The position numbers were made by a program, and so were the translations under genes. From a virus (Duplodnaviria > Caudoviricetes), in the IMG/VR virus record IMGVR_UViG_3300036793_000052, positions 1 through 62,756 of that record: 62,756 nt of DNA, one strand, 5' to 3'. Under the pieces are notes generated by a model that made no database searches, had not been told where the DNA came from, and worked only from the letters and a program-made list of their open reading frames with translations. Below are positions 5,367 through 5,424 of this stretch, piece after piece (position 1 is the stretch's first letter; the number at the start of each line of letters is the position of its first letter).

Positions 5367-5424
5367 GTCGAAACCGCCTTAGGGCGGTCTGCCGGAATGG
5401 CTACCGGCACTGAAGAGACAGCCA
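5367..5424 (+). ncRNA. Type II hammerhead ribozyme 2
   Basis: GTC-GAAA-CCGCC TTAG GGCGG-TC^-TGCCGG loop CCGGCA-CTGAAGA-GAC; loop TGGCT can pair with 3' AGCCA. Confidence 0.92.

Follow-up and report, generated by a model that had tools for sequence, protein, structure and literature searches.

The DNA analysed here, referred to below as the window, comprises 62,756 bases and is the complete record of an uncultivated phage from soil. Its large genes (terminase, portal, primase/polymerase and endolysins) lie mostly on the minus strand, and the region of interest is a plus-strand operon that includes an ArdC-like anti-restriction gene and several short open reading frames (table 1), with further small genes following downstream of the last ORF listed. 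The terminase is nearest to those of Mycobacterium phages (57% identity), and the window codes for a DUF732 protein at 6323-6679; from these two features we would guess that the phage infects a member of the Mycobacteriales. Among the runs listed, the phage sequence is present in two, both of them DNA soil metagenomes, and in no RNA run. One of the two is probably the source of the record. The second (X2, with another study code) contains contig fragments identical to the window at 3889-4075, 4440-4602 and 5463-5715, and the same phage thus occurs in more than one sample; the contigs of the two runs contain no variation informative for the ribozyme discussed below.

The ArdC-like protein matches the ArdcN domain PF08401 (7.7e-7, 29.8 bits, cut-off 22.6) and the anti-restriction protein family phrog_7245 (2e-14), with weak zincin-type matches in its C-terminal half, and the 46-aa ORF behind it has no family match. 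Two predicted hammerhead ribozymes, both intergenic between co-oriented plus-strand ORFs, enclose this block, and their predicted cleavage sites are 1354 nt apart with three ORFs in between, a spacing comparable to that in other viral contigs among the matches listed. The first ribozyme overlaps at its start the stop codon of the upstream gene, and the second is spaced 20 nt from the upstream ORF and 34 nt from the downstream start codon.

Each hammerhead stands directly upstream of one copy of a 25-nt leader, which consists of CCACTGC, five variable bases and then AAGGAGATTCGAA. This leader precedes four start codons of the plus-strand operon and is absent elsewhere in the window, with no copies expected by chance; a pattern for the leader motif gave 0 matches in viral contigs. 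Ribosome binding does not explain its CCACTGC part, which could be a protein or RNase site. The gap before the ArdC-like gene (4283-4357, plus strand) contains AGTCGAAC, which represents eight of the nine opening bases of both hammerheads, together with two copies each of CCAAAACC and CCACTGC. A hammerhead core is absent from this gap, which may be what remains of a third ribozyme or a duplicated leader. The plus-strand cluster contains no internal terminator-like sites, and the hairpin at 7455-7493 is likely to mark the end of the operon; a simple sigma-70 scan returned no promoter.

Table 1. Features of the plus-strand operon and component parts of the predicted ribozyme 2 (positions in the window).
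Feature	Position	Strand	Basis
ORF, 50 aa, upstream of ribozyme 1	3863-4015	+	ORF list
Type II hammerhead ribozyme 1, predicted cleavage after C4035	4014-4074	+	Hammerhead_II below gathering score
25-nt leader including ribosome-binding site (four copies)	4069-4093, 4332-4356, 5428-5452, 5617-5641	+	sequence
ORF, 62 aa, after ribozyme 1	4094-4282	+	ORF list
ArdC-like anti-restriction gene, 281 aa	4358-5203	+	PF08401 ArdcN, phrog_7245
ORF, 46 aa, ends 20 nt before ribozyme 2	5206-5346	+	ORF list
Type II hammerhead ribozyme 2, whole element	5366-5427	+	Rfam RF02276
Stem II 3' strand GUC (11.3-11.1), open stem, pairs with GAC 5417-5419	5367-5369	+	sequence, cmscan structure line
Core G12 A13 A14 and A15.1	5370-5373	+	sequence, cmscan alignment
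Stem III hairpin: CCGCC 5374-5378 / GGCGG 5383-5387, loop UUAG 5379-5382	5374-5387	+	sequence, MFE and centroid folds
U16.1 (5388) and C17 (5389), predicted scissile bond 5389/5390	5388-5389	+	Rfam alignment
Stem I hairpin: UGCCGG 5390-5395 / CCGGCA 5404-5409, 8-nt loop AAUGGCUA 5396-5403	5390-5409	+	sequence, fold
Core C3 U4 G5 A6 A7 G8 A9 (CUGAAGA)	5410-5416	+	sequence
Stem II 5' strand GAC (10.1-10.3)	5417-5419	+	sequence
3' tail AGCCA, pseudoknot with loop I UGGCU 5398-5402	5420-5424	+	5 contiguous pairs, sequence
ORF, 53 aa, downstream of ribozyme 2, ATG at 5454	5454-5615	+	leader and ribosome-binding site
Terminator-like hairpin, 18 pairs (9 G-C), then T run	7455-7493	+	terminator scan

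Identity and architecture of ribozyme 2

Both strands of the whole window were scanned with cmscan against 4227 Rfam families. The sole match above its gathering score was to Hammerhead_II (RF02276), at 5366-5427 on the plus strand, which scores 51.5 bits (E 1.1e-7; gathering score 37) and in which the alignment spans model positions 1-66 of 66. The original prediction, made from the letters alone, had placed a hammerhead at 5367-5424, and the two delimitations differ by only a few bases at the ends. Twister, pistol, hatchet and twister-sister ribozymes, which are likewise self-cleaving RNAs found between phage-like genes, in the neighbourhoods where hammerheads occur (PMC6765202, available sections), but whose folds are unrelated to that of the hammerhead, were not detected in the window. 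Indeed, no other ribozyme class appeared there at E values up to 5, the only related item being a sub-threshold match to RAGATH-32 at 30180-30241 on the minus strand (21.5 bits versus 41.8, E 1.3), located at the 3' end of an endolysin-like gene (30184-31056). RAGATH-32 is an RNA family named after its association with twister and hammerhead neighbourhoods; the match is probably due to chance or to a terminal hairpin.

The anatomy of the element is as originally drawn. The stems CCGCC/GGCGG and TGCCGG/CCGGCA, the core CUGAAGA and the pseudoknot UGGCU/AGCCA are all found where they had been placed, and C17 of the Rfam alignment falls on 5389, the base after which cleavage had been proposed. The topology, too, is that of a type II hammerhead, with stems I and III closed by loops and stem II open, as seen both in the cmscan structure line and in the minimum free energy (MFE) fold. 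The acceptance rules for hammerheads given in the available sections of PMC3088659 concern the invariant core nucleotides and the canonical nature of the core-adjacent pairs. The invariant core of ribozyme 2 is complete (CUGAAGA 5410-5416, GAA 5370-5372, A5373-U5388 and C5389), and its core-adjacent pairs are all canonical (U5390-A5409, G5417-C5369 and A5373-U5388). The triplet at the predicted cleavage site is GUC, with C5389 as its last base, and the pseudoknot between loop I and the bases directly following stem II, for which at least four pairs are taken as the criterion, has five. Compared with the RF02276 model, which has the same core, capped stems I and III, a short open stem II and the pseudoknot, ribozyme 2 exhibits no structural difference, apart from carrying at core position 7 an A, which is a minority state.

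In the MFE fold, the 62 nt form both stem III and stem I, with an energy of -22.6 kcal/mol (z -2.03). Since 7 of 200 shuffled sequences fold equally well, folding energy alone is weak evidence; the opposite strand has a z of -2.85. The covariance-model score suffices for identification where thermodynamics alone would not. Two other readings of the stretch were considered and rejected. The stem III hairpin is not a terminator, there being no T run and no terminator-like call at the site. Two ORFs overlapping ribozyme 2 (5237-5413 and 5361-5615) would make the stretch coding, but the start codon at 5454 (ATG) stands behind the ribosome-binding site and 25-nt leader that four genes have in common, and the coding reading was dismissed for this reason. 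Judged from its sequence, the stretch 5366-5427 on the plus strand is a genuine and complete type II hammerhead, predicted to cleave itself.

The companion copy and the wider family

The existence of another hammerhead upstream, to which the original prediction had compared the present one, is borne out by a match to Hammerhead_II at 4014-4074 (plus strand) when a permissive threshold is used; its score of 33.3 bits (E 0.0064) does not reach the gathering score of 37. The core of this ribozyme 1 is complete (GAAA 4018-4021, C17 at 4035 and CUGAUGA 4057-4063). Its stem III is CGCC/GGCG with a UUCG loop, stem I has 7 bp, the stem II 5' strand GAC lies at 4064-4066, and the tail UUCC (4067-4070) has its complement in GGAA (4045-4048), which would make a pseudoknot of four pairs.

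Covariation between the two copies had been put forward as an argument for selection on structure. With the copies aligned from the core, and stem II identical in both (GUC/GAC, in the same sense), three double-sided changes can be identified: one in the second pair of stem I (A-U to G-C) and two in the pseudoknot (one of U-A to A-U, the other of U-A to G-C). In addition, stem III of copy 2 differs by one inserted C-G pair, and the outermost pair of stem I is lost in this copy. The covariation is thus real and compensatory, if thin, since two sequences are by themselves too few to support an argument for selection; convincing covariation comes instead from 126 other viral copies among the matches listed.

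These were retrieved with a pattern in which nothing but the core and its anchor bases was specified (GAAA, CUGANGA, stem II as GUC/GAC and, in stems III and I, the first pair), so that the sample represents a sub-family with the same stem II, which is part of the whole type II family. The pattern matched at least 120 stretches of viral contigs and no fewer than 120 stretches of prokaryote genomes from many phyla including archaea, and several of the contigs among the matches listed hold two to four copies each. Of the 126 distinct viral copies listed, 113-125 have a canonical pair at each of positions 2-5 of stem III, compared with a mean of 56-67 and a maximum of 84 when partners are shuffled; for stem I pairs 2-6 the corresponding figures are 112-126 canonical cases and a shuffled maximum of 97. 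Each tested stem position is occupied by five or six different pair types. At core position 7, 84 of these listed copies have U, 22 have C, 15 have A and 5 have G, and the A seen in the CUGAAGA core of ribozyme 2 (15/126) is a normal, albeit minority, state.

The pseudoknot was tested in 128 distinct sequences among the matches listed, the two from the window included. Where loop I has at least 6 nt (66 of the 128), the longest loop-tail complement averages 4.85, against 3.49 after permutation of the tails, and a mean as high arose in none of 1000 permutations. The remaining 62 listed sequences, with a short loop I, show a complement of 2.23 versus 1.87 permuted; given this almost complete lack of loop-tail complementarity among the listed matches, short-loop hammerheads must use another tertiary contact. 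Loop I is 3-5 nt long in these short-loop viral hammerheads (loci L004-L123), and many of the short-loop copies that were read carry GGUC...GACC, in which an extra G-C pair lengthens stem II. The model score, together with the covariation and the pseudoknot signal of the family, constitutes strong sequence-based evidence for ribozyme 2.

Gene context and distribution of related hammerheads

Flanks of at least 300 nt were available for 116 viral copies among the matches listed. In 75 of these 116 listed copies, an ORF of at least 30 codons on the same strand, with its start codon and a Shine-Dalgarno sequence, follows within 60 nt downstream, compared with 7% of random positions, and the start codons mostly lie 12-37 nt past stem II. 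Upstream, an open frame of at least 40 codons ends within 60 nt of 110 of the 116 listed copies, and in 101 of the 110 it reaches at most 1 nt into the ribozyme or stops no more than 5 nt short of it. The flanking ORFs of the listed matches are small (medians of 93 and 88.5 aa). The 75 listed downstream ORFs belong to 38 PHROG families, with four ATPases, three single-stranded DNA-binding proteins (SSB), two anti-restriction proteins and single cases of RusA, a RecE-like protein and others. Such diversity indicates that, among the matches listed, there is no fixed partner gene, and with only two anti-restriction genes among the 75 listed downstream genes, their bracketing by hammerheads is not a general rule. 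Note also that a viral contig and a contig of a Bathymodiolus methanotrophic symbiont each harbour at least four type II hammerheads spaced 350-900 nt apart. Many-copy loci of this kind are found in L043 (9126-11317), in L130 (1507-3341) and in L165, and these contigs are good material for a study of clustered ribozymes.

Close relatives of the locus were sought among 50,697 phage records, with no match for the region 3300-6300 in megablast or for 5340-5460 in blastn. The ArdC-like protein has one relative with 41% identity, encoded by a contig shared by the viral and metagenome collections, which has no hammerhead within 4 kb of this gene, and a terminase search of genome contigs found nothing. 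None of these searches thus recovered an orthologous copy of the hammerhead in a related phage. Hammerhead_II above the cut-off occurs in none of the three nearest cultured mycobacteriophage records, and in the class of an Actinomycetes metagenome-assembled genome 2 of 151 sampled genomes have a match (about 31 candidates were scored per genome), one of the two being the centre genome, which had been chosen because it has a match. These figures suggest that hammerheads are uncommon, though present, in the presumed host group. By title, we found no report of a hammerhead ribozyme in a mycobacteriophage; the supplement of PMC3088659 may list examples from actinobacteria or actinophages.

Possible roles in the early transcript

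Natural type II hammerheads were described by Perreault et al. in 2011 (PMC3088659). According to the available sections of that paper, mutational assays identified the loop I/tail pseudoknot as critical for fast cleavage, single prophage genes or short gene blocks, including ardA, are flanked by several hammerheads, cleavage in vitro was observed for three tandem arrangements, and hammerheads were proposed to process long phage transcripts. The present locus exhibits the same type of clustering, in that same-sense intergenic copies flank a short gene block of a phage. The most similar case is the prophage set around ardA in Agrobacterium tumefaciens, where same-sense hammerheads likewise surround a short anti-restriction block in a polycistronic phage transcript. 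That set comprises ardA and three ribozymes shown to cleave in vivo (PMC3088659, available sections), whereas here an ArdC-like gene is accompanied by two ribozymes whose activity is predicted, in a virus with a mycobacteriophage-related terminase (57%). The three predicted type II hammerheads of Desulfovibrio vulgaris, two of which lie close together, resemble the present ones in type and in their position beside hypothetical or phage-like genes. They are active in vitro and in vivo, the latter by capture of 2',3'-cyclic phosphate and 5'-OH ends, those left by hammerhead cleavage (cyPhyRNA-seq; PMC8782182, available sections), while in our case activity is a prediction. Finally, the HHphage of haloviruses HF1/HF2 lies, as here, shortly before the start codon of an early gene, and a mapped 5' end lies within 3 nt of its cleavage site; unlike ribozyme 2, it is a structural variant that needs high salt and belongs to an archaeal virus (PMC3088659, available sections).

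We consider it very probable that ribozyme 2 cleaves the plus-strand operon RNA after C5389 and separates the ArdC-like block from the genes downstream. In the transcript, the closed hairpins of stems III and I would form a three-way junction together with the open stem II of 3 bp and the 5-bp pseudoknot, and the RNA would cut itself after C5389 by internal transesterification, splitting the 62-aa ORF, the ArdC-like gene and the 46-aa ORF from the small genes that follow. Because the cut would fall between two closed hairpins, the upstream product would terminate with the stem III hairpin plus one nucleotide bearing a 2',3'-cyclic phosphate (on 5389), and the downstream product would begin with a 5'-OH on U5390, flush with the stem I hairpin and 64 nt before the next start codon. 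Both hairpins persist in the predicted folds of the separate products. RNA ends of this kind are expected to slow the 3' exonucleases and 5'-end-dependent RNases of bacterial mRNA decay, and parts of one early transcript could in this way acquire separate stabilities or translation rates. This consequence we infer, since the purpose of hammerheads in bacteria and phages is called undetermined in the available sections of a 2019 review (PMC6765202), which also give the standing suggestion that polycistronic transcripts are processed into RNAs differing in stability or translation efficiency. Later titles included no paper settling the role in phages.

Several other scenarios need to be weighed against simple cleavage. 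Ribozyme 2 might be conditional, with cleavage gated by terminating ribosomes, co-transcriptional folding or ions and serving as a regulated switch on the downstream genes instead of constitutive processing. Regulated cleavage has been raised for phage hammerheads (PMC3088659, available sections), and the idea gains some appeal from the 101 of 110 listed upstream frames that end 0-5 nt from a hammerhead or overlap it, as well as from ribozyme 1 beginning on a stop codon, so that a terminating ribosome would cover part of it. However, tight spacing is the default of compact phage genomes, the upstream ORF of ribozyme 2 ends 20 nt before the element, and it has small loops and no aptamer-like insertion; gated cleavage is therefore improbable. 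It is still harder to believe that ribozyme 2 is an inactive relic or a chance match that does not cleave at a biologically useful rate, and this is in fact the least probable of the scenarios. Stem II has only three pairs, and some predicted hammerheads proved inactive in PMC3088659, but the available sections of the same paper describe a 2-bp stem II as common in active members, and a relic is hard to reconcile with an E value of 1.1e-7 for the whole window against all families, the lack of any deviation in the core, the intact 5-bp pseudoknot and an intergenic position typical of phages.

The two same-sense hammerheads might also act jointly, as an mRNA excision device releasing a 1354-nt RNA (4036-5389) with the ardC block, which seems rather less probable than gating. 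If this were true, the hairpin-flush 5'-OH and 2',3'-cyclic phosphate ends could shield the RNA from end-dependent host RNases, or the ends could instead join, giving a circular anti-restriction mRNA to which ribosomes have access and which would be the counterpart, in a phage, of hammerhead RNA circles. Ligation of the excised RNA into a circular ardC mRNA, either by the reverse reaction or by an RtcB-type ligase, is marginally less credible again than excision as such. A 5'-OH and a cyclic phosphate are the ends on which RtcB-type ligases act, and with the copies in the same sense and stem II identical (GUC/GAC), joining would restore a complete type II hammerhead at the junction. Yet a GUC/GAC stem II is common, occurring in the at least 120 viral and at least 120 genome stretches mentioned above, and sharing it is thus not specific evidence for joining. 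Moreover, spliced or circular products of tandem prophage hammerheads were sought and none detected, as stated in the available sections of PMC3088659.

Self-cleavage of a polycistronic early mRNA, an activity deduced from the identity of the element and its gene context, is most likely the role of ribozyme 2. The locus adds one clean and one probable clustered type II hammerhead to a phage lineage in which we found none reported, and the combination of ArdC-like flanking with a mycobacteriophage-like lineage is mildly notable. Anti-restriction genes are thus seen bracketed by hammerheads once again: ardA in A. tumefaciens and an ArdC-like gene here.
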